DNA of 64,000 bases, taken from contig JAJYLD010000001.1 in assembly GCA_021788015.1 (NCBI GenBank), forward strand, positions 273,581 through 337,580, given 5' to 3'. Origin of the DNA: a bacterium. GTDB taxonomy: Bacteria; Patescibacteriota; Patescibacteriia; Patescibacteriales; JAKAJF01. Below are positions 4,117-52,600 of the stretch, piece after piece; the stretch's first letter is position 1, and the number at the start of each line of letters is the position of its first letter. Both the position numbers and the translations under genes were made by a program. The notes beneath the pieces were generated by a model. It did no database searches. It saw only the letters and a list, made by a program, of their open reading frames with translations, and had not been told where the DNA came from.

Positions 4117-4226
4117 GTCATGCTGGAGGGAACCACGAGTCTTCGGGACGACCGATAGCATTTCGCACCACGAGATCCTATCCCCCGGATCAAGCCCGGG
4201 GCTAAAGGCAATCGCTCCAGGATGAC
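4117..4226. repeat. GTCAT-TIR hairpin element (family 2, copy A, MITE-like)
   Basis: Ends are GTCATGCTGGAG ... CTCCAGGATGAC. The nested hairpin GATAGCATTTCG/CGAGATCCTATC is shared with the copies at 4939 and 34948. Confidence 0.85.
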
Positions 4227-4938: not shown

Positions 4939-5020
4939 GTCATACCGGAGGGAGTTCTGGACTCGGGACGACCTATAGCATCTCGCACCACGAGATCCTA
5001 TCGCTTCGCTCCAGGATGAC
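4939..5020. repeat. GTCAT-TIR hairpin element (family 2, copy B)
   Basis: GTCATACCGGAG ... CTCCAGGATGAC, 82 nt, same orientation as copy A. Confidence 0.85.
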
Positions 5021-25306: not shown

Positions 25307-26444
25307 AGATTTACAATTGTCCGTTATCAAACAAATCGAACTTAGGGCTTCGAGATATCCGGATGTCGTTTCTTTGGCGCAAGGAATCCCGAGTTTTGAC
25401 ACCCCGGAGAGCATAAAAAGACGGGTGGAAAACGCCTTAAAAAGGGGAGTGGTGGCAAAATACTCTTTAAGCCCGGGATTGCCGGAACTTAGAGAATTGA
25501 TTGAAATTTCTCTGGCTCGGGAAAACATGTTTTATGATTGGCAAAAAGAAATTATAGTTACCGCCGGTTCGATTGAGGCCATAACTGCCGCGATTTTGGC
25601 CGTTACCGATCCGGGCGACGAGGTCATAATTCCGGAACCCACTTATACGAGCTATCGCGAAGTTATTATTTTGGCAGGATGCAAACCGGTTTTTGTTCCC
25701 CTTGATGAAAATAACGGCTGGTCATTCGATTTGGACAAGTTTAAAAAAGCGATTACTCCGAAAACAAAAGCGATTTTTTATTGCAACCCTAATAATCCGA
25801 CTGGAACGATTTATTCGAAAGAGAACCTTTTGGGTTTGGCTAAAATCGCGGAAGAAAGCGATTTATATCTGATTTCCGACGAAGTTTATAAAGATTTTAT
25901 TTTTAACGGCGAAAAATTCTTCAGTTTGGCCGAAATTCCGAAATCGCGCAAACGAGTGATAAGAATTTTTTCTTTTTCAAAAGCTTTCGCCATGACGGGC
26001 TGGCGCATTGGTTATTTGCACGGCGACGAATCCGTTGTAAAAGAAATTTTAAAAGTTCACGATTGTCTCGTCACTTGCGCTCCGGTCGTATCTCAATACG
26101 GAGCCATGGGCGCTTTGGAAATGGGTGAAAAAGACGTAAAATTTTTTGTGGGTGAATTTAAAAAAAGAAGAAATTTGATCTGTGAACGGCTTGACAGTTT
26201 AAAAAATATTTTCAGCTATGTAAAACCGAACAGCGCCTACTACGTTTTTCCGAAAATTTTAAGGGAAAACGTTAAGTCTTGGGATTTTTCTTTGGCGCTC
26301 TTGGAAAAAGCGCGAGTGGCCGTTGTCCCCGGTATCGCTTTCGGACCGAACGGAGAAGGCCATATTCGCATGAGTTTCGGCAGAAGCGAGGACGACATAA
26401 ACAAAGCCTTCGATCGCATGGAAAAAATGTATGAACCCCGTTAG
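25290..26444 (+). CDS. class I/II PLP-dependent aminotransferase
   Basis: NPNNPTG and the PLP-lysine region SFSKAFAMTGWRIGY. The last two codons and the stop lie inside the repeat element. Confidence 0.85.
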   Translation: MANRTKDLQLSVIKQIELRASRYPDVVSLAQGIPSFDTPESIKRRVENALKRGVVAKYSLSPGLPELRELIEISLARENMFYDWQKEIIVTAGSIEAITAAILAVTDPGDEVIIPEPTYTSYREVIILAGCKPVFVPLDENNGWSFDLDKFKKAITPKTKAIFYCNPNNPTGTIYSKENLLGLAKIAEESDLYLISDEVYKDFIFNGEKFFSLAEIPKSRKRVIRIFSFSKAFAMTGWRIGYLHGDESVVKEILKVHDCLVTCAPVVSQYGAMGALEMGEKDVKFFVGEFKKRRNLICERLDSLKNIFSYVKPNSAYYVFPKILRENVKSWDFSLALLEKARVAVVPGIAFGPNGEGHIRMSFGRSEDDINKAFDRMEKMYEPR

Positions 26445-26554
26445 AAGCCGCGATCGCTTTAGCAAATAAAAAATACAAATAGGATTAAGATTTTAGTAAT
26501 TTTTAATATTTAATATGCGGATCGAAATGATCGCGACCTGCTTCTAACGGGATG
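26434..26554. repeat. start-codon-docked palindromic element, copy 2 (121 nt)
   Basis: CCCGTTAGAAGCCGCGATCGC ... GATCGCGACCTGCTTCTAACGGG. It is preceded by TATG (26430-26433) and ends with ATG 26552-26554. Confidence 0.85.
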
Positions 26555-33697: not shown

Positions 33698-33701
33698 TAT
33701 T

Positions 33702-33731
33702 CCCGTCGAAGCGATCGCGACTTCTAACGAG
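33702..33731. repeat. collapsed 30-nt version of the start-codon-docked element
   Basis: The minus strand reads CTCGTTAGAAGTCGCGATCGCTTCGACGGG-aata-ATG (tagA-NUDIX start 33697). It begins 2 nt after the ligT stop. Confidence 0.7.
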
Positions 33732-43567: not shown

Positions 43568-44614
43568 ATGATGTATCGAGGACTTTTTCATGTCCATCAC
43601 CATATAATTCCTATTTTTGACAAAAATAACAAAAAGTTGAAAAAAAATATTAAAAAGTATTTTAATTTTTTAAAAGAAAAAAATATTCGCATTGTTGATT
43701 TCACCTGGCATAGCCATCTTTTTTGTTTAAATCCAAAATTAAAAGAAAGCGAAATATCTTATTTCAAATTAAACTTATCGCCGCTGGAAATTTTTAAAAT
43801 AATAAAGAAAGAGGCAAAAAACTTTGACATAATAGTAATACCGACACTGGAAGTTACCTGTCTTATTAAAACGGAAAAGGGGGGGAAAGAAGCACACATT
43901 TTGGTTATGCATGAAGATGAAAATTTGCTTTACGGAAGCGAATTGATGTATAAGCGCTATTTCCCTTTTGAAAATTTTTTTCATGAGGCGCCTCAAGGTT
44001 CATTGATTGTCTTAGCCCATCCCTGGAGATTTGGTTGTGGCATGACTTACTTTTTAGGAACAACAAAAACGAATGAAATAATCAAAAATTATCATCCGTT
44101 AATTGAAAATAATGGCTGGATTTATCCCTGGTATTATGCGCTCGAATCCATATTTGCACGACTGCCATTTCTCAAAAAGATCAAGAGTTTTAAAAATTTT
44201 TACGACCTAACCAAGAAAAATTTTGAACTTTCCGGTCTCGAAAATTATGTTCGTTTTTATGGAATGGATACTCACGCCCCGCACCTTCTACCGGGAAACA
44301 CTGGATTTATTGAAATGGAAATGGAAGAAAATTCTTCTATTGAAAAAATTTTAAATACTCTTAGGGAAGGAAAATTGACTCCGAGTATTCCTCAAAAAAT
44401 CGGCTTTTGGGAAAGTATGCTCTGGATGATTTATGATTTGCTAATATCGGTTAAGGACGAAATTATTCTCGAATACATGATAAAACATAAGTTCGGATTA
44501 AAACACGAATTTACTCGCCCAAACAGTAAAGATTCCGAGGAAAAAGAAAAGTTTACTGCAGTTTTAATAAATAAAGATATTGTCAAGGAAGATTTAAAAA
44601 CAAAAATAAAATAA
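43568..44614 (+). CDS. PHP-domain-like metal-dependent phosphoesterase (very AT-rich gene)
   Basis: GLFHVHHH, VLAHPWRFG and GMDTHAP resemble PHP motifs; the assignment is tentative. Confidence 0.5.
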   Translation: MMYRGLFHVHHHIIPIFDKNNKKLKKNIKKYFNFLKEKNIRIVDFTWHSHLFCLNPKLKESEISYFKLNLSPLEIFKIIKKEAKNFDIIVIPTLEVTCLIKTEKGGKEAHILVMHEDENLLYGSELMYKRYFPFENFFHEAPQGSLIVLAHPWRFGCGMTYFLGTTKTNEIIKNYHPLIENNGWIYPWYYALESIFARLPFLKKIKSFKNFYDLTKKNFELSGLENYVRFYGMDTHAPHLLPGNTGFIEMEMEENSSIEKILNTLREGKLTPSIPQKIGFWESMLWMIYDLLISVKDEIILEYMIKHKFGLKHEFTRPNSKDSEEKEKFTAVLINKDIVKEDLKTKIK

Positions 44615-44677
44615 AAACAAAAGACACGGTTTTTGTCTTTAGACTTAGAGAGAAGGTAAACTAAGTGAACAAAATAT

Positions 44678-45205
44678 ATGACTAATATTTATGATCTCTG
44701 GTCGCATAGGTGGCTGTCACCTAAAACGGAGATAAAACGATCTCCGATTTGTGCGGTTGGAGTTTTTGCAAAGGACCATATTAAGAAAGGTGAGATTATT
44801 AGAGTAACGGGAGGTCTCATAATTCCAAAAACCGATGCCGAAAAATATAACAAGATTATAAATTACGAGGTGGATAATATTTATCTTGATATCGGCGATG
44901 ATTTCTTGATGGCTCCGACACAAGACGATTTAAAACTGACCGCGACCATAAATCATTCCTGCGATCCGAACGCCGGTTTTCTTGACACGATAACTATTAT
45001 CGCAATCAAAGACATCGCTCCGGGAGAGGAGATAGCTTGGGATTACGCTTTTAGTCAAACTACATTTACACCCTTTCAATGCCGGTGCGGCAAAGATAAT
45101 TGTCGGAAGATAATTAAACCGGATGATTGGAAAAATAAGGATATTCAAGAAAGGTATGGACAATATTTTTCTCCTTATTTAAAGAGGCATTTTAAAATAA
45201 CCTAG
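44678..45205 (+). CDS. SET-domain protein lysine methyltransferase-like
   Basis: NHSCDPNA, GEEIAWDY and a post-SET cysteine cluster CRCGKDNCRK. Confidence 0.85.
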   Translation: MTNIYDLWSHRWLSPKTEIKRSPICAVGVFAKDHIKKGEIIRVTGGLIIPKTDAEKYNKIINYEVDNIYLDIGDDFLMAPTQDDLKLTATINHSCDPNAGFLDTITIIAIKDIAPGEEIAWDYAFSQTTFTPFQCRCGKDNCRKIIKPDDWKNKDIQERYGQYFSPYLKRHFKIT

Positions 45206-45307: not shown

Positions 45308-46627
45308 TTAACTTTGCATCGATCTTCTGAATCTTTCCCTGTCAGTCATTGTTTTATTTGCTTTTGAATTTTGGTGCTTAAAATTTCTTCTATTTTTCTG
45401 CTTAAATGAATTTCGTTTGCCATACCCGCCAGATTCTTTTTTAGATAAATGGTGACTGGAAAATATTTTGTCTTTTAGTGCTTTTGTTTTATTAAGATTC
45501 GTCACGGGATCTACCTTGCTAATTTGGATTTTTCTATTTATCAATCTCTCGATATTTCTTATTTCCCTGAATTGATTTGGCAGAGCAAAAGAAATGGCAT
45601 GACCCGACTTGCCGGCACGTCCCGTTCGTCCGATGCGATGAACGTAATCTTCCGAATTATCAGGCAAATCATAGTTTACAACAAGTTCGATACCGTTAAC
45701 GTCGATTCCGCGCGCGGCGATATCGGTCGCGACAAGAATTCGATAGCGGCCGCCCTTAAAGCCGCTTAAGGCTTCACGCCTTTGGGCGAGAGATCTGTTC
45801 GAATGGATTTCTTCCGCTTTGTATCCCAATTCTCTAATTTTTTGAGACAACCTTTTCGCATTATGCTTCGTCCGGGAAAAAATTAAAACGGAACCGGAAT
45901 ATTCTTTTAATATCTTTTCGAGTTGAAAAAATTTTTCCTCATTTTTTACGATAACCATTTCCTGATTAACTTTTTCGGCCGTCGTACCCTGGGGAGCGAC
46001 TTCTATTTGAACCGGCAAGGCCATATGTTTAGAAATTATTTTCATAATCGCCGGAGGCATTGTCGCCGAAAAAAGCATAGTCTGCCTTTCTTTCGGAACC
46101 GATTTTAAAATAATTTCTATTTGAGGCGCAAAACCCATATCAAACATCATATCAGCTTCATCAAGCACTAAAATTTTTATATCATCCAGTTTAACGAACT
46201 TTTGCTTAAGATGGTCATTCAATCTGCCCGGCGTGGCGATTATAATATGGGGGTTTCTTCGCAAAGCGTAAAGCTGCTTGCCGATCGGCTCTCCCCCGAT
46301 TAAAACCGCTGTTCGCAGCCCCAGCTTATGGCCGATGCTTTTTAAATTTTCATCAACTTGAATAGCTAATTCACGAGTAGGCAAGATTACCAAACCTCTG
46401 CCTTTATGTTTGGCTAAACGCTGAAGCATGGGGATGCCGAATGCCAATGTTTTGCCGGTTCCTGTTTGCGCAATTCCGACAATGTCCTTTCCCTCGATAG
46501 TAACCGGGATTGATTTGCTTTGGATCGGGGTTGGATTAGTAAATTTTAATTGGTCAAGAATTGCAAGTAGTTTTGGCGCAATACCAAGACCATAGAAATC
46601 CAATGATTCCTGTTTTGTATTAATCAT
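45308..46627 (-). CDS. DEAD-box ATP-dependent RNA helicase
   Basis: AQTGTGKT, DEAD, SAT, HRIGRTGR and a basic C-terminal tail. Confidence 0.95.
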   Translation of the reverse strand: MINTKQESLDFYGLGIAPKLLAILDQLKFTNPTPIQSKSIPVTIEGKDIVGIAQTGTGKTLAFGIPMLQRLAKHKGRGLVILPTRELAIQVDENLKSIGHKLGLRTAVLIGGEPIGKQLYALRRNPHIIIATPGRLNDHLKQKFVKLDDIKILVLDEADMMFDMGFAPQIEIILKSVPKERQTMLFSATMPPAIMKIISKHMALPVQIEVAPQGTTAEKVNQEMVIVKNEEKFFQLEKILKEYSGSVLIFSRTKHNAKRLSQKIRELGYKAEEIHSNRSLAQRREALSGFKGGRYRILVATDIAARGIDVNGIELVVNYDLPDNSEDYVHRIGRTGRAGKSGHAISFALPNQFREIRNIERLINRKIQISKVDPVTNLNKTKALKDKIFSSHHLSKKESGGYGKRNSFKQKNRRNFKHQNSKANKTMTDRERFRRSMQS

Positions 46628-46760
46628 AAATTGGTGACCCGAGTAATATGAGCCACCGGAAATGACAAAAATATTTTCGAGTCCATTTAAAACCTGGTCT
46701 AAATGCCCAAGTTTGTTTAGAAATTAAAATATAGCAGGAAAAAATTTAAATGTCAATGCT

Positions 46761-46792
46761 TTTATTTTTACTCGCCTTCCTTGCTCCGACCC
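46761..46792 (+). repeat. direct repeat, left copy (duplicate of the 3' end of the 49502-49876 gene)
   Basis: TTTTATTT-TT-ACTCGCCTTCCTTGCTCCGACC. The 22-mer is identical to 49513-49534. Confidence 0.85.
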
Positions 46793-47017
46793 TTTTGATT
46801 CTGGTGGTGATACGAAATAATTTGACTTATCAAATTATCAGTTGTATATTGTAGTTATAATAAAATATGTTGATTAAATTTAATTTTAAAACTTGGTCCG
46901 GATTTGTTAAGAACTTAATCTCTCCTACCTAAGAAGGCCGGTTTTTTAAATTCGTTTTAAATTAGCCCGTCTTCTTAGGCGGGTTTTTTGTATTTTAAAA
47001 TAATTAAATTTAAAAAT

Positions 47018-47701
47018 ATGAATTCTAAAAAACAATTAATATTTATAGGCATCTTTACTTTTTTGGGTTTTGCGGCTCTGCAATTTCCCTTAACACATTT
47101 GGCGGGTTCCAAAGCGCAATTTACTCTGTTTGACAGTTTCGCACCTATCGCCGGCGGTTTTTTAGGAAGCTTCCCCGGAGTTGTATCCGTTTTTTTAATG
47201 CAATTTTTTAATTTTTTGATTCACGGATCGAAAATTTTGGATGTGGGAATTATAATAAGATTTTTTCCCATGATGGCCGCCGCCGTTTATTTCGGAAAAC
47301 GAAATAAATTAAATTTAATTTTACCCATCCTGGCCATTGCCGCTTTTAATCTTAATCCAATCGGGCGCTCAGTATGGTATTTTTCTTTATATTGGCTAAT
47401 TCCCGTCGTTTGTTATTTTTTTCAGGAGCGCTTTCTATTCGCAAGAAGTTTGGGGTCAACTTTTGCGGCTCATTCTGTCGGCGGAGCGCTATGGATATAT
47501 TTTTTCCATCTATCGAGATCGGCTTGGATAGCTTTGATCCCCATTGTCGCAATTGAAAGATTTACTTTTGCATTGGGTATCGCTGTTTCTTATTTTATTT
47601 TTAATAATATCTTAAATTACATAAACAATAAAAAATTGGTTACTTGGAAATTTCCCGTGGATCATCGCTACGTTTGGAAATTTTCAGAACAACACTCCTA
47701 G
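47018..47701 (+). CDS. multi-pass membrane protein (possible substrate-capture/transport component)
   Basis: Six or so hydrophobic segments. It is the first gene of the module before the CofE-like gene; no motif was recognised. Confidence 0.55.
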   Translation: MNSKKQLIFIGIFTFLGFAALQFPLTHLAGSKAQFTLFDSFAPIAGGFLGSFPGVVSVFLMQFFNFLIHGSKILDVGIIIRFFPMMAAAVYFGKRNKLNLILPILAIAAFNLNPIGRSVWYFSLYWLIPVVCYFFQERFLFARSLGSTFAAHSVGGALWIYFFHLSRSAWIALIPIVAIERFTFALGIAVSYFIFNNILNYINNKKLVTWKFPVDHRYVWKFSEQHS

Positions 47702-47703
47702 TT

Positions 47704-48459
47704 ATGAAATTCATAAAAATAAAAATACGTCCGATTTTGCCGCCAAAGACGAATATCTATCCCCTGTTTGATGAATATTTATCAAAACTCAAAGACGGCG
47801 ATGTAATATTTATCACTTCAAAAATATTAGCCATACACCAAGGCAGATGCCTTAAAATAGAGCCGAGAATAAATAAACGAAAATTGATAAAACAAGAAGC
47901 CGAGAAATATATTATTGGCAGAAAACCGGCCGGAAAATTTATACTTTCCATAAAAGAACACACGTTGATTCCCACTTCCGGAATAGATGAGAGCAATGGC
48001 AATGGCTATTATATTCTTTGGCCCCAAAAACCTTCTCTTTTGGCAAGAGAAGTATGCGAATATTTACAAAAGAAATCTGGCGTAAAAAAACTGGCCGTAA
48101 TTATAACCGATAGCCATACCACGCCTCTCAGATATGGAGTGACCGGCATTTCCATAGGATTTTTTGGATTGGATCCCGTATATAATTATATAGGAAAAGA
48201 AGACATATTCGGCAGAAAATTAAAATCCACTAAAACCAATATTGTCGACGCTCTGGCGGCCATGGCGGTTTTATTAATGGGCGAAGGCAAAGAACAAACG
48301 CCCATAGTGATTTTAAGGAATGCAAAATTTATTAATTTTAGAAGAAAAAGTACTTACAAAAGATTGGTAATTCCGGCGAATCAAGATATTTATAGTCCCT
48401 TGCTTAAAATATTTAATAAGAAAAATGAAAATCATAGCAATCGTCGCAATCAGCATTGA
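47704..48459 (+). CDS. CofE-family (F420-0:gamma-glutamyl ligase-like) protein
   Basis: FITSKILAIHQGR, TSGIDESN, ITDSHTTPLRYGVTGISIG, VDALAAMAVLLMGEGKEQTPIVILR. Confidence 0.8.
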   Translation: MKFIKIKIRPILPPKTNIYPLFDEYLSKLKDGDVIFITSKILAIHQGRCLKIEPRINKRKLIKQEAEKYIIGRKPAGKFILSIKEHTLIPTSGIDESNGNGYYILWPQKPSLLAREVCEYLQKKSGVKKLAVIITDSHTTPLRYGVTGISIGFFGLDPVYNYIGKEDIFGRKLKSTKTNIVDALAAMAVLLMGEGKEQTPIVILRNAKFINFRRKSTYKRLVIPANQDIYSPLLKIFNKKNENHSNRRNQH

Positions 48460-48958
48460 TGGCAAAATAGCGATAAATTCCCATCATTCTTCGGACTGGA
48501 CCAGCCCGGAAGATAAAATTTTTTTGCATAACTTGCTAGACAATAGCAATGTTGTTATCGTGGGCAACAATACTTATAAAAATGCGATTAAGCCGCTATC
48601 AAAAAGAAAATGTATAGTTTTTACTAATTCGGTTGATACTATTTTAAAAAAATCCGATAATCTGGTTTACTGCAACCCGCAAAATATAAAATTATCGGAT
48701 TTAATAAGAGATTATGAAATAGTGGCGCTTTTGGGAGGAACACAAACCTATACCTATTTTTTAAAAAATAATCTCATTGACGAATTATTTATAACTATTG
48801 AGCCTTTAATCTTCGGGAAAGGACTGAGTATTTTTGATTGCGCGGATGAAAAACCAAACCGCTTTCAATTACTTTCCGTGAAAAAGTTAAATAATTCGGG
48901 AAGTCTCTTGTTACATTACAAAAATGAAAATCACTCGGCAAATTTTAAAAAATTATAA
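48425..48958 (+). CDS. RibD C-terminal / DHFR-like reductase domain protein
   Basis: MKIIAIVAISIDGKIA......VVIVGNNTY.....LLGGTQTYTYFLKNNLIDELFITIEP. Confidence 0.75.
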   Translation: MKIIAIVAISIDGKIAINSHHSSDWTSPEDKIFLHNLLDNSNVVIVGNNTYKNAIKPLSKRKCIVFTNSVDTILKKSDNLVYCNPQNIKLSDLIRDYEIVALLGGTQTYTYFLKNNLIDELFITIEPLIFGKGLSIFDCADEKPNRFQLLSVKKLNNSGSLLLHYKNENHSANFKKL

Positions 48959-49491
48959 AAAATTTCATCCCCGCAAGTTTTATCCACAAACATTTCGGGA
49001 TGAAATTGTACGGCATAAATAGGCCTTGTCTTATGTTTTATGGCTTCGATTCCATCTTTAGAACGAGCAAGCGCCAAAAGGTTCTCCGCGGCCTCTTTAA
49101 CCACCCAACGATGACTTTCAAAAACTTGAAAATTAGGTAAATTGGAAAATATTTTTTCTTGCTTGAGCACTTTAATTTCAAGAATACCTTTCTCTTTGCT
49201 GCGCATACGTTCGAGTTTAGCTCCGAATGCATTGGCTATGATCTCAAAGCCGAAACAGATCCCGAAAATTTTCGTTTTTGCATTTCTGATAAAATTTATT
49301 TCATTTTGAAGACGATTTTCATTTCCTTGTACCGAAAATTTGTGACCGCCTGAAAGAATTATGGCATCAAATTTGTTAGGATCTACCGAGTTAATCTTAG
49401 AGTATTTTATCGTCTCAAAAGGAATGTTGACCAACAGTTTTTTAAGTTGTGAAAAATATTTAGTGCCGTTGTTTATTATTAAAATTTTCAT
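48931..49491 (-). CDS. class I glutamine amidotransferase (GuaA/PabA-type stand-alone domain)
   Basis: IILSGG, the nucleophile region GICFGFEII, and YAVQFHPE. Confidence 0.8.
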   Translation of the reverse strand: MKILIINNGTKYFSQLKKLLVNIPFETIKYSKINSVDPNKFDAIILSGGHKFSVQGNENRLQNEINFIRNAKTKIFGICFGFEIIANAFGAKLERMRSKEKGILEIKVLKQEKIFSNLPNFQVFESHRWVVKEAAENLLALARSKDGIEAIKHKTRPIYAVQFHPEMFVDKTCGDEIFYNFLKFAE

Positions 49492-49498
49492 AATTTAT

Positions 49499-49534
49499 TT
49501 TTTATTTCTTCCCACTCGCCTTCCTTGCTCCGAC
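49499..49534 (+). repeat. direct repeat, right copy (overlaps stop and last codons of the 49502-49876 gene)
   Basis: TTTTATTT-CTTCCC-ACTCGCCTTCCTTGCTCCGACC. Confidence 0.85.
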
Positions 49535-49876
49535 CTCATCCGATCCGAAATGATGCGCGATTTCATGTTTTAGAGTGCTCGTTATTTGATTCTTTACTTC
49601 TTCTTCCGTTTGGCAGCGGCTTAAAATCGCTTTTCGAAATAGCGTAATCCGATCGGGAAGAATGGGACCGTAATTAATGCGCCTTGATTGTCCAACGCCT
49701 TCAAAAAGCCCGAAAAGCAAAACGCCCGGTTTGAGCTTCACTTTTTTTATTTGTTCAGGAGTGGGTTCGTCATCGACAAGAATGGCGACATTGTTCATCT
49801 TGCTCTTAATTTCTTCCGGAAGTACTGCAAAAGATTCTTCCACAAATTTATCGAATTGTCCATTGGAAATAATCAT
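49502..49876 (-). CDS. zincin-like metallopeptidase family protein (DUF1025-type)
   Basis: HEIAHHFG motif near the C-terminus and a typical ~120-aa length. Confidence 0.7.
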   Translation of the reverse strand: MIISNGQFDKFVEESFAVLPEEIKSKMNNVAILVDDEPTPEQIKKVKLKPGVLLFGLFEGVGQSRRINYGPILPDRITLFRKAILSRCQTEEEVKNQITSTLKHEIAHHFGSDEVGARKASGKK

Positions 49877-52529: not shown

Positions 52530-52600
52530 TCGGGGATCGTCTAATGGTAGGACAGCGGGTTTTGGTCCCGTCAATTGGGGTTCGAATCCCTATCCCCGAG
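52530..52600 (+). tRNA. tRNA-Gln (anticodon TTG)
   Basis: Acceptor TCGGGGA/TCCCCGA, anticodon arm GCGGG-TTTTGGT-CCCGT, T arm TGGGG-TTCGAAT-CCCTA. Confidence 0.9.

Follow-up and report, generated by a model that had tools for sequence, protein, structure and literature searches.

The window, i.e. the whole 64-kb stretch of Patescibacteria DNA that was analysed, carries a 22-nt direct repeat around a block of four genes, with a metallopeptidase-like (zincin) gene on one side and a helicase gene on the other. The features of this region are as follows (strand in parentheses):

43457..43529 (+): tRNA-Glu(CTC), outer limit of the variable region; its 3' end lies opposite the zincin stop in relatives, 37-101 bp away
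43568..45205 (+): a 348-aa gene (function unassigned) and a SET-domain gene, both missing between zincin and tRNA-Glu in relatives
45308..46627 (-): DEAD-box RNA helicase, CshA/RhlE-like, 439 aa (Pfam, NCBIfam)
46728..46756 (-): helicase promoter-like site, TTGACA-17-TATATT with TG, 11/12 matches; 14 nt separate its -35 box from repeat copy 1, which is upstream
46770..46791 (+): repeat copy 1, non-coding, between the divergent helicase and folate-operon promoters
46792..49513: putative insert, 2,722 bp, bounded by the 22-mer copies, four genes
47018..47701 (+): membrane protein, operon gene 1, 227 aa; no match in Pfam or NCBIfam
47704..48459 (+): CofE-like putative folate gamma-glutamate ligase, 251 aa (Pfam F420_ligase, E=2.9e-38)
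48425..48958 (+): DHFR-like / RibD_C-like reductase, 177 aa (Pfam, NCBIfam)
48931..49491 (-): stand-alone class I glutamine amidotransferase (GATase), 186 aa (Pfam GATase, E=4.9e-28)
49502..49876 (-): Zincin_1 metallopeptidase-like gene, putative target gene, 124 aa (Pfam PF06262, E=1.3e-24)
49514..49535 (+): repeat copy 2, codons for (E)VGARKAS, 3' end of the intact zincin gene

The 22-mer ACTCGCCTTCCTTGCTCCGACC has two exact copies in the window, one at 46770-46791 and the other at 49514-49535, each on the + strand. The initial annotation had reported two same-orientation, 22/22 identical copies, and the exact matches located here agree with it; the sites that it gave were right, but its positions were about one base off. 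No further match with up to 3 mismatches was found on either strand of the window, none of 100 dinucleotide shuffles contained any match to the 22-mer, and none is expected by chance. Among the exact direct repeats of the 64 kb it ranks second by length, and it is the sole long one outside the dispersed repeat families of the window. A repeat length of about 33 nt had also been proposed, but had to be abandoned: alignment of the flanks beyond the 22-mer was equalled by 62-64 of 300 shuffles, similarity stops sharply on both sides, and the extra TTTTATTT beside the 22-mer belongs to the AT-rich background; significance is limited to the 22 nt. An exact match with such abrupt edges fits a crossover core rather than a decayed larger duplication. 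A tRNA fragment was rejected as the source of the core, the only tRNAs of the window being Glu (43457) and Gln (52530).

At copy 2 the 22-mer encodes the tail of an intact 124-aa Zincin_1 protein, which was recognized already in the initial annotation. The protein ends in ...HEIAHHFGSDEVGARKASGKK, and its last three codons (GKK) and the stop codon lie just inside the inserted block. Among the 264 Zincin_1 homologues found, the nearest shows 68% identity, and the GARKA[SG] tail is conserved in 120 homologues. The location of copy 1, upstream of the helicase promoter and outside any gene, likewise corresponds to the earlier description. Read on the - strand, this copy gives VGARKAS-KNKSIDI followed by a stop codon, and it carries the codons of the window's own zincin at each of the five synonymous positions where the nearest relative differs (GGA GCA AGG AAG GCG in copy 1 and in the window's zincin, GGC GCG CGG AAA GCA in the relative). 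These common codon choices suggest that the duplication is autologous and recent. The continuation of copy 1, AGTAAAAATAAA, resembles the relative's AGTAAAAAATAA, which is weak evidence. Copy 1 appears to be the original 3' end of the zincin gene, now displaced. A 32-aa hydrophobic ORF placed over copy 1 by the gene caller (L001 13023-13121, i.e. window 46756-46854, + strand) was judged spurious, as it crosses the operon promoter and has no counterpart in the related locus L088.

The block consists of the GATase gene and of an operon encoding the membrane protein, the folate gamma-glutamate ligase and the DHFR-like protein; these four intact metabolic/transport genes and one leader cover all of the 2,722 bp. 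The best NCBIfam match of the GATase is GMP synthase subunit A, below the cut-off, and that of the ligase is TIGR04132 (218.7 bits, under the 350-bit cut-off). The membrane protein has an orthologue (77% identical) at the same operon position in L088, its position is occupied by a Vut_1 transporter in other lineages, and it is probably a transporter itself. The DHFR-like gene is paired with the ligase in loci L088-L092. The idea that the four genes form a recurring module was not borne out, since the ligase-DHFR operon is found elsewhere in unrelated contexts, without GATase and without zincin, and no GATase was found near zincin or ligase in the other loci examined. In this block, the GATase and DHFR-like genes overlap at their 3' ends by 28 bp, so the two halves were probably joined before insertion. 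The edges of the block fall just outside functional elements: the GATase starts 10 nt past the zincin stop, 22 nt separate the edge from its ATG, and at the other end 30 nt precede the -35 box of the folate operon, which is conserved with L088. The bracketed genes have GC3 z-scores of -1.28, -1.56, -1.50 and -1.76, and no other run of adjacent genes in the window is as low in GC3.

In two related species, whose zincin is 65-67% identical, the zincin gene is followed after 37-101 bp by tRNA-Glu(CTC), Fmt, Def, LigB and ClpB; in the window, the same flanks are separated by 5,972 bp with seven genes. Zincin also converges on Fmt in a Saccharibacteria locus. Of the 6 ORFs of the window with a GC3 z-score of -1.28 or lower, 5 lie within this 6-kb region, among them the 348-aa gene (-1.90). 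The initial annotation had envisaged an empty site in which zincin adjoins the helicase, but in the relatives zincin is instead next to tRNA-Glu/Fmt. Neither a zincin-helicase nor a zincin-GATase adjacency was found in 80 species-representative loci and in the loci of five closer relatives. Helicase relatives (77-79% identity) occur in unrelated contexts and none of them adjoins zincin: the loci of three have no zincin neighbour and the fourth lies at a contig end. This empty-site comparison rests on relatives that are 65-68% identical at closest, two of which lack the whole 6 kb. The helicase, SET-domain and 348-aa genes are lineage-specific as well, so that only the zincin-proximal portion of a 6-kb accretion is delimited by the repeats; the helicase belongs to the distal, probably older part of this accretion. 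Neither a third copy of the core nor any other repeat was detected at the tRNA-Glu end, where the best local score was matched by 16% of windows. Duplicated gene ends comparable to those described here were not found around the ligase-DHFR operon in other genomes. L092 does have flanking repeats; they belong to an intergenic repeat present in multiple copies in its genome and are unrelated to the 22-mer.

Genes and sequences that could have moved the block were sought in several ways. The reported absence of an integrase from the block extends to the whole window, as no integrase, transposase, recombinase or relaxase domains were detected among the scanned ORFs of the 64 kb, and the block contains no decayed integration or transfer genes, which constitute the strict CIME criterion. 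Terminal inverted repeats were not found (the best end-to-end match was 14 against a shuffle mean of 14.4, and 315 of 500 shuffles equalled it), the reconstructed empty site has no inverted repeat of at least 5 nt, and within the core only a 3-nt one is present, so that the dyad symmetry usual in sites of core-type recombinases is missing from both. Flanking sites resembling dif, as in Xer elements (about 28 bp, dyad-symmetric arms, 6-8 bp spacer), were not seen. A metagenome search, proposed along with the initial annotation, gave no match for the 22-mer in JGI metagenome or IMG/VR contigs; none was found at up to 5 mismatches among 92 other loci, and the DNA of the block had no match in phage and plasmid collections. 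Excised or empty variants were not encountered, every retrievable contig of the organism being 100% identical to the window. Comparison of copy 1 and the leader with known RNA families gave no hits at gathering scores, and at E<=10 only terminator-driven noise.

Based on these observations, we consider the repeat to be a real insertion scar of the att/CIME kind and of an ordinary type. We favour, with somewhat more than even confidence, the view that the 22-mers are the junction duplication left by one 2,722-bp foreign insert that entered the last codons of the zincin gene. The observations behind it are the repeat with its abrupt ends and its coding identity, the region missing in relatives and the atypical composition of the block. 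Counting against it are the lack of a recombinase domain in the scanned ORFs, the missing dyad symmetry, the failure to find the core at other loci or at the tRNA-Glu end, the identity of all retrievable contigs, and the absence of a zincin-helicase adjacency in the relatives and of comparable duplicated ends around the ligase-DHFR operon elsewhere. The original suggestion that a duplicated gene 3' end brackets inserted DNA is thus upheld by the codon choices, by the region missing in two relatives and by the outlying composition. Its more specific form, an attL/attR pair, is plausible but unproven, as neither a recombinase, nor a core dyad, nor another core, nor junction variants were found.

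The course of events might have been as follows. Before the insertion, the zincin gene would have run through the core into the tail that now follows copy 1 (...ARKAS-K..., then stop), with the helicase promoter directly next to it. The insert would have brought the GATase gene together with a folate operon that converges on it and is self-contained, having a promoter and an attenuator of its own. After the insertion, copy 2 and three codons of the insert (GKK, with the stop codon) would complete the zincin gene, whereas the old 3' end (copy 1) would persist as a non-coding relic 2.7 kb away. Most likely, a 22-bp sequence on an incoming circle recombined reciprocally with the identical zincin 3' end, giving an attL/attR-type structure, and the recombinase may have acted in trans or may since have been lost, as in a CIME-like element; RecA acting on short homology (Campbell-type integration) seems less likely. 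The empty site predicted for the - strand is ...CATCATTTCGGATCGGATGAG-GTCGGAGCAAGGAAGGCGAGT-AAAAATAAAAGCATTGACATTT... and the predicted junction of the circle is ...ATCACCACCAGAATCAAAAG-GGTCGGAGCAAGGAAGGCGAGT-GGGAAGAAATAAAAAATAAATTATG.... The block would be the youngest, target-proximal part of the 6-kb accretion in the gap between zincin and tRNA-Glu. Where integrated elements accrete, the newest one adjoins the target gene's terminus (PMC5704250), and since this order matches the one deduced at zincin, we count it in favour of the insertion model.

Other origins of the repeat were weighed against this model. It is unlikely, yet worth considering, that two variants with different islets at one hotspot (zincin-GATase-folate operon-tRNA-Glu and zincin-helicase-SET-348aa-tRNA-Glu) were joined in tandem by unequal or illegitimate recombination, which trapped the last 22 bp of the second variant's zincin gene at the junction. 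This would account for a single internal relic without a third copy or a recombinase, and it agrees with a zincin/tRNA-Glu gap that is variable, empty in relatives and here filled with two compositionally different blocks. On the other hand, both islets would have to start at the identical nucleotide after ...GCGAGT, a requirement that in itself implies site-specific entry, and the search for variant genomes returned only identical contigs, with the 22-mer absent from JGI metagenome contigs. Also unlikely, in our opinion, is a target-site duplication made by a staggered cut with nicks 22 nt apart and gap repair, by a transposase or Cas1-like integrase supplied in trans. The empty site expected from it equals that of the att model, the exact repeat does abut the insert at either end and stops sharply, and long target-site duplications are known for a few elements, e.g. 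the IS1202 group and casposons. Against it, 22 bp exceeds nearly all known duplication lengths, no terminal inverted repeats were found (see the shuffles above), neither a transposase nor a casposase is encoded in the 64 kb, and the cargo consists of two ordinary metabolic units.

It is very improbable that copy 1 is kept for a function of its own, e.g. as a protein-binding, recombination or regulatory signal common to the stretches upstream of the helicase and of the GATase, and that its match to the zincin tail is selected rather than a relic. On the - strand both copies do lie upstream of gene starts (22 nt to the GATase ATG and 14 nt to the helicase -35), but the distances to the two downstream genes are very unequal and copy 1 is outside both predicted transcripts. 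The lack of substitutions in copy 1 carries little weight when only 22 sites are compared. At copy 2 the sequence is fixed by the conserved GARKAS codons; besides, the 22-mer is devoid of dyad symmetry, has no more than two copies in the 64 kb and was not found in relatives. An assembly artefact, in which a separate molecule or a strain variant was joined into the chromosome through a shared short k-mer, is barely conceivable. The smallest k of common assemblers is close to 22 nt, the length of the repeat. Nevertheless, a k141 ENA contig and a separate Logan contig (L001, L002), the latter assembled at a k that presumably exceeds 22, contain both copies and cross all four junctions with 100% identity to the window, which argues that the arrangement is not an assembly quirk; moreover, a chimeric junction would be expected from a misjoin, rather than a flanked block that has intact genes on either side.

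The insertion into the zincin gene may be compared with several known systems. CIMEs have been described in streptococci and are defined in PMC5704250. As in a CIME, direct repeats surround a gene block, one of them forms the 3' end of a conserved gene that is intact, no internal integrase is present, and, as in accretions, the block lies beside the target end and older foreign DNA follows further out. Unlike a CIME, the block is devoid of remnants of integration, mobilisation or conjugation genes and shows no sign of ICE/IME descent, no cognate element or integrase is known for it, and two core copies are present instead of three; furthermore, it resides in a Patescibacteria genome and carries two metabolic units in 2.7 kb. 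Islands inserted by tyrosine recombinases into the 3' ends of tRNA, tmRNA and protein genes share with our block the duplicated target 3' end, an identity segment of about 20 bp, the atypical composition, a tRNA-flanked variable site and a gene end replaced by the element, whereas the block lacks an integrase, an excisionase and inverted core-type sites around a crossover region and is far smaller than typical islands. A Campbell-type single crossover would likewise flank the insert with direct, sharply bounded copies of the homologous segment, with no dedicated recombinase, but it leaves unexplained the source of a circle with exactly this zincin fragment. In addition, 22 bp is at or under the length usually required for efficient RecA recombination.

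A bolder and, in our view, improbable extension is that, in Patescibacteria, small metabolic cassettes devoid of an integrase are moved into housekeeping genes at their 3' ends, by means of a short core such as this 22-mer and a recombinase encoded elsewhere (in the genome, a phage or a partner element); the block would in that case remain excisable, as one representative of a group-specific cassette system.

The interval between the repeats also contains the leader of the folate operon, with the following features:

46822..46989 (+): folate-operon promoter and leader; -35 TTGACT at 46822-46827, -10 candidates at 46845-46850 and 46856-46861
46867-46932 (+): near-leaderless uORF, MLIKFNFKTWSGFVKNLISPT, then stop
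46928-46939 (+): antiterminator 5' arm, pairing with 46969-46979
46964-46985 (+): terminator, followed by a T-run

Nineteen distinct leaders were compared, in which the uORF, in most cases 20-22 codons long, encodes a peptide with the consensus MLIxKxxKTWSGF. The search pattern fixed codons 1-3 and 8-13; K5 and I7 are favoured though they were free in it, and the third codon positions vary freely in the 19 leaders. A terminator with a T-run is located downstream in most members. The antiterminator duplex averages -14.2 kcal/mol with its own partner versus -8.8 kcal/mol with the partners of other members, the former mean being reached by none of 10,000 permutations. Antiterminator and terminator are mutually exclusive and the pairing is kept by covariation. 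In most members the uORF stop codon abuts or overlaps the antiterminator 5' arm, and thus the position of the ribosome can decide termination. The leader precedes genes for folate transporters, folate gamma-glutamate ligase, DHFR-like proteins, FolB, SHMT and FolD. Taken together, these sequence features suggest that it is a conserved peptide plus transcription attenuator controlling folate genes across Patescibacteria. It looks undescribed, and literature searches found no papers on such a leader peptide or on a CPR folate riboswitch. Similarly to the TnaC, ErmCL, SpeFL and pyrBI leaders, it combines a short conserved uORF with mutually exclusive antiterminator and terminator hairpins. In contrast to them, its mRNA is (nearly) leaderless, its regulon comprises folate and one-carbon genes, it has no codon run for a regulated amino acid, and it was found only in Patescibacteria-type contigs. 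The leader may substitute for the THF riboswitches of other phyla.

If the insertion model is correct, the repeat dates and delimits one horizontal gene gain in the reduced genome of an uncultured member of the Patescibacteria. A whole folate-salvage operon, with its own promoter and attenuator, and an amidotransferase would have arrived as one 2.7-kb piece at a tRNA-flanked hotspot, and the block might therefore inform how these metabolically minimal bacteria patch their metabolism. The scar itself is of a well-known type, and the leader inside the interval is the more promising lead: if it does replace the THF riboswitches, it would constitute a new small-molecule- or translation-responsive leader peptide that is directly testable.

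Exactly two copies of ACTCGCCTTCCTTGCTCCGACC are present in the window, at 46770-46791 (copy 1) and 49514-49535 (copy 2), both on the + strand. No further match was found in the window at ≤3 mismatches, and dinucleotide-preserving shuffles gave none (0/100). The duplication in the same orientation described by the initial annotation is thus an exact 22/22 pair. The proposed length of ~33 nt did not hold, as the flanks beyond the 22-mer score like shuffled sequence (62 of 300 shuffles as good on the left, 64 on the right) and the shared TTTTATTT is therefore AT-rich background. By length, the 22-mer ranks second among the exact direct repeats of the window, the remaining long ones being members of dispersed intergenic repeat families. 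The copies lie among the following features:

43457-43529: tRNA-Glu(CTC)
between this tRNA and the helicase: a SET-domain gene and a 348-aa gene of unknown function
45308-46627, - strand: DEAD-box helicase
46822-46989, + strand: promoter and conserved leader of the operon
47018-47701, + strand: membrane protein of 227 aa, operon gene
47704-48459, + strand: CofE-like ligase, operon gene; top NCBIfam match TIGR04132 ("putative folate metabolism gamma-glutamate ligase"), below the model cut-off
48425-48958, + strand: DHFR/RibD_C-like reductase, operon gene
48931-49491, - strand: stand-alone class I glutamine amidotransferase (GATase), 10 nt after the zincin gene
49502-49876, - strand: Zincin_1 gene, 124 aa
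49916-50605, - strand: LexA

The 22-mer was absent from JGI metagenome contigs and IMG/VR contigs, and the fetched loci held no near-match. Copy 1 is covered by no Rfam family, the tRNA-Glu end showed neither a third copy nor a different repeat, and neither the 22-mer core nor the reconstructed empty site shows dyad symmetry.

Other repeats were also observed in the window. A ~125-nt dispersed intergenic element lies at 823-946, 26430-26554 and 38484-38609 (+), with a partial inverted copy at 33699-33726. Its ends are inverted repeats (CCCGTTAGAAGCCGCGATCGC ... GATCGCGATCTGCTTCTAACGGG), and its 3' arm stops precisely at the ATG of the gene that follows: an apparent unannotated rpmJ at 944 (MKVRASVKK), a Mur-ligase-like gene at 26552, or, at 38607, a 517-aa gene. 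The long hairpin predicted for it would sequester the start codon along with the ribosome-binding region, and the element may be a translational operator or MITE-like. A second small family (...CACGAGATCCTATCGCTTCGCTCCAGGATGAC) occurs at 4130-4226 and 4983-5020 (+), just upstream of the L17 and S9 ribosomal protein genes, and in opposite orientation near ClpB at 34948-34979 (-); one copy carries a 26-nt insertion. An identical AT-rich 16-mer, TAAAAAATAAATTATG, at 49489-49504 (-), the zincin-stop/GATase-start junction, and at 38547-38562 (+), just 5' of the 517-aa gene, is probably a chance match.

No close relative was found in a collection of 5.8 billion proteins; the best identities there were 68% (zincin), 74% (ligase) and 79% (helicase). 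Two species keep synteny with the window. In the first, L083-L086 (zincin 67%), 101 bp lie between the zincin stop and the 3' end of tRNA-Glu(CTC), beyond which come Fmt, Def, a small ORF, LigB, a 459-aa gene and ClpB; the second (L097/L098, zincin 65%) has the same order with a gap of 37 bp, and tRNA-Gln(TTG) just upstream of the zincin gene. In the window, one flank holds ClpB, the 517-aa gene, LigB, Def, Fmt and tRNA-Glu and the opposite flank tRNA-Gln(TTG), at 52530, but the stretch from the zincin stop to tRNA-Glu measures 5,972 bp and contains seven genes. In a Saccharibacteria locus the zincin gene also converges on Fmt, and the LexA-zincin adjacency is common to other relatives. The simplest reading of these gene orders is that the ancestral arrangement was tRNA-Gln ... 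(LexA) zincin -> <- tRNA-Glu-Fmt, which would make all seven intervening genes lineage-specific. The empty site seen in relatives is zincin beside tRNA-Glu; the zincin-helicase junction that the initial annotation proposed as a check was not observed. Neither GATase nor an orthologous helicase adjoins the zincin gene in any of ~90 zincin loci, and where the DNA upstream of a helicase relative could be read, it held no zincin gene.

The block between the copies is of atypical composition. The GC3 z-scores of its four genes are -1.28, -1.56, -1.50 and -1.76, and five of the six window ORFs with z ≤ -1.28 fall within the 6-kb region between zincin and tRNA-Glu, while zincin, LexA and Fmt have average or higher GC3. 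Comparison of the block DNA with phage and plasmid records gave no match. Across Patescibacteria, the ligase and DHFR genes form a conserved operon that sits in unrelated contexts: between LepA and rpsB with a window-type membrane protein (L088), next to RuvA/Ddl (L089), and in other places (L091, L092). As it was never accompanied by GATase or zincin in the other loci examined, the "four-gene module" of the initial annotation is not a recurrent cassette. The three-gene operon converges on GATase. The DHFR and GATase genes overlap by 28 bp at their 3' ends, an indication that both halves were already contiguous on arrival. The block edges lie just outside functional elements, 22 nt 5' of the GATase ATG and 30 nt 5' of the operon -35 box (TTGACTTATC, conserved with L088).

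Copy 2 encodes VGARKAS (GTC GGA GCA AGG AAG GCG AGT) within the zincin tail ...HEIAHHFGSDEVGARKASGKK*, and 120 zincin homologues conserve GARKA[SG] with a few basic residues after it. Copy 1 is non-coding and lies upstream of two promoters, 14 nt from the -35 box of the helicase promoter (11/12 match) and 30 nt from that of the operon. In the zincin frame, copy 1 runs on as AGT AAA AAT AAA AGC ATT GAC ATT TAA, whose translation, ...ARKASKNKSIDI*, is a plausible alternative zincin tail. It agrees, save one missing A, with the zincin end of the nearest syntenic relative (...GCA AGT AAA AAA TAA), which is weak support for an old tail because the stretch is A-rich. The codon choices are the stronger point: at all five synonymous positions differing from this relative, copy 1 has the window's own codons. 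The duplication is therefore autologous and recent, and did not come in from a distant donor together with the helicase.

The repeat pair is very probably an insertion scar of some kind. The repeat is exact and sharp-edged, one copy ends a conserved gene that is intact, and the DNA in between is of foreign composition. Together these properties fit recombination across a short identical core, or target duplication. They do not fit a decayed larger duplication or a functional motif, and selection on the 22-mer as such a motif seems most improbable. Still less credible is an assembly artefact, since an ENA k141 contig and a Logan contig cross both copies and are 100% identical to the window; these contigs accordingly show no strain variation. 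As the initial annotation stated, no integrase is present; the ORFs scanned across 64 kb contained no integrase, transposase, relaxase or other recombinase domain, and the insert lacks terminal inverted repeats.

We somewhat favor a reciprocal exchange in which a circular incoming molecule recombined with the 3' end of the zincin gene. This may have been site-specific, with an integrase since lost or acting in trans, or, less likely, a RecA-mediated Campbell-type event, for which the homology is borderline-short. Unequal recombination between population variants carrying alternative islets is unlikely, and a 22-bp target-site duplication by an enzyme acting in trans slightly more so. In accretions of integrated elements, the newest adjoins the target gene's end (PMC5704250). 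The order seen here would agree with this, the presumably newest, lowest-GC3 block lying by the target gene and older foreign DNA farther away. Like att-flanked, integrase-less islets (CIMEs, in a loose sense), the structure has direct repeats on both sides, the 3' end of a gene for its target, and an atypical composition. A recombinase, recurrence of the core, transfer-gene remnants and an exact empty site were not found in the sequences examined. We therefore class it with scars of a known kind rather than as a demonstrated mobile element.

The operon leader, which is unrelated to the 22-mer repeat, is conserved with L088 (2325-2555) and L091/L092 (L091 9861-10000), and is also present in L102-L117. 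The back-translated pattern MLI-x4-KTWSGF retrieved 18 loci from JGI metagenome contigs, of which 17 are apparently genuine (~1 chance match expected by our own estimate). The leader occurs in many Patescibacteria-type contigs. Its parts in the window are:

46867-46932, + strand: uORF (MLIKFNFKTWSGFVKNLISPT*)
46928-46939 and 46969-46979, + strand: antiterminator arms
46964-46985, + strand: terminator

The peptide reads MLIxKxxKTWSGF followed by 7-9 variable residues, mostly in 20-22 codons. Third positions are free to vary, and K5 and I7 are favoured though unconstrained by the search pattern. In most leaders the -10 box is only ~5-10 nt from the ATG, so the mRNA would be leaderless or nearly so, and the uORF stop adjoins or overlaps an antiterminator 5' arm whose pairing partner is the 5' half of an intrinsic terminator. 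This pairing covaries (mean duplex energy -14.2 kcal/mol with the own partner versus -8.8 with partners of other members; 0/10,000 permutations reached the observed mean). A ribosome at the uORF stop would mask the arm and let the terminator form, whereas one stalled earlier, on the invariant KTWSGF, would leave the arm free and permit read-through.

Two further observations concern these loci. In the Patescibacteria genome of L091/L092, a multi-copy intergenic repeat, CCGCCATAAATACTTAGTATCGGATGACCCTTAGAC (L091 8661-9862, L092 337-3606), surrounds the ligase-DHFR operon and lies directly upstream of the KTWSGF leader; the ligase protein is identical in both contigs and the downstream gene content differs, which suggests a local recombination hotspot. 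In L117, a divergent match (...WIRKKTWTGF..., ~10690, +) lies inside FolD in another reading frame, 1.9 kb downstream of the genuine leader (~0.06 chance matches estimated).

Genes 3' of the leaders encode Vut_1 transporters, the window-type membrane protein, CofE-like ligase, DHFR-like proteins, a FolB fusion, SHMT (GlyA) and FolD, and would together make up a regulon for folate and one-carbon genes. Rfam 15 does not contain the element, nor was it found in the searched literature; it is a candidate new leader-peptide attenuator of this regulon. Its presence shows that the operon carried in by the inserted block was complete and self-regulated.
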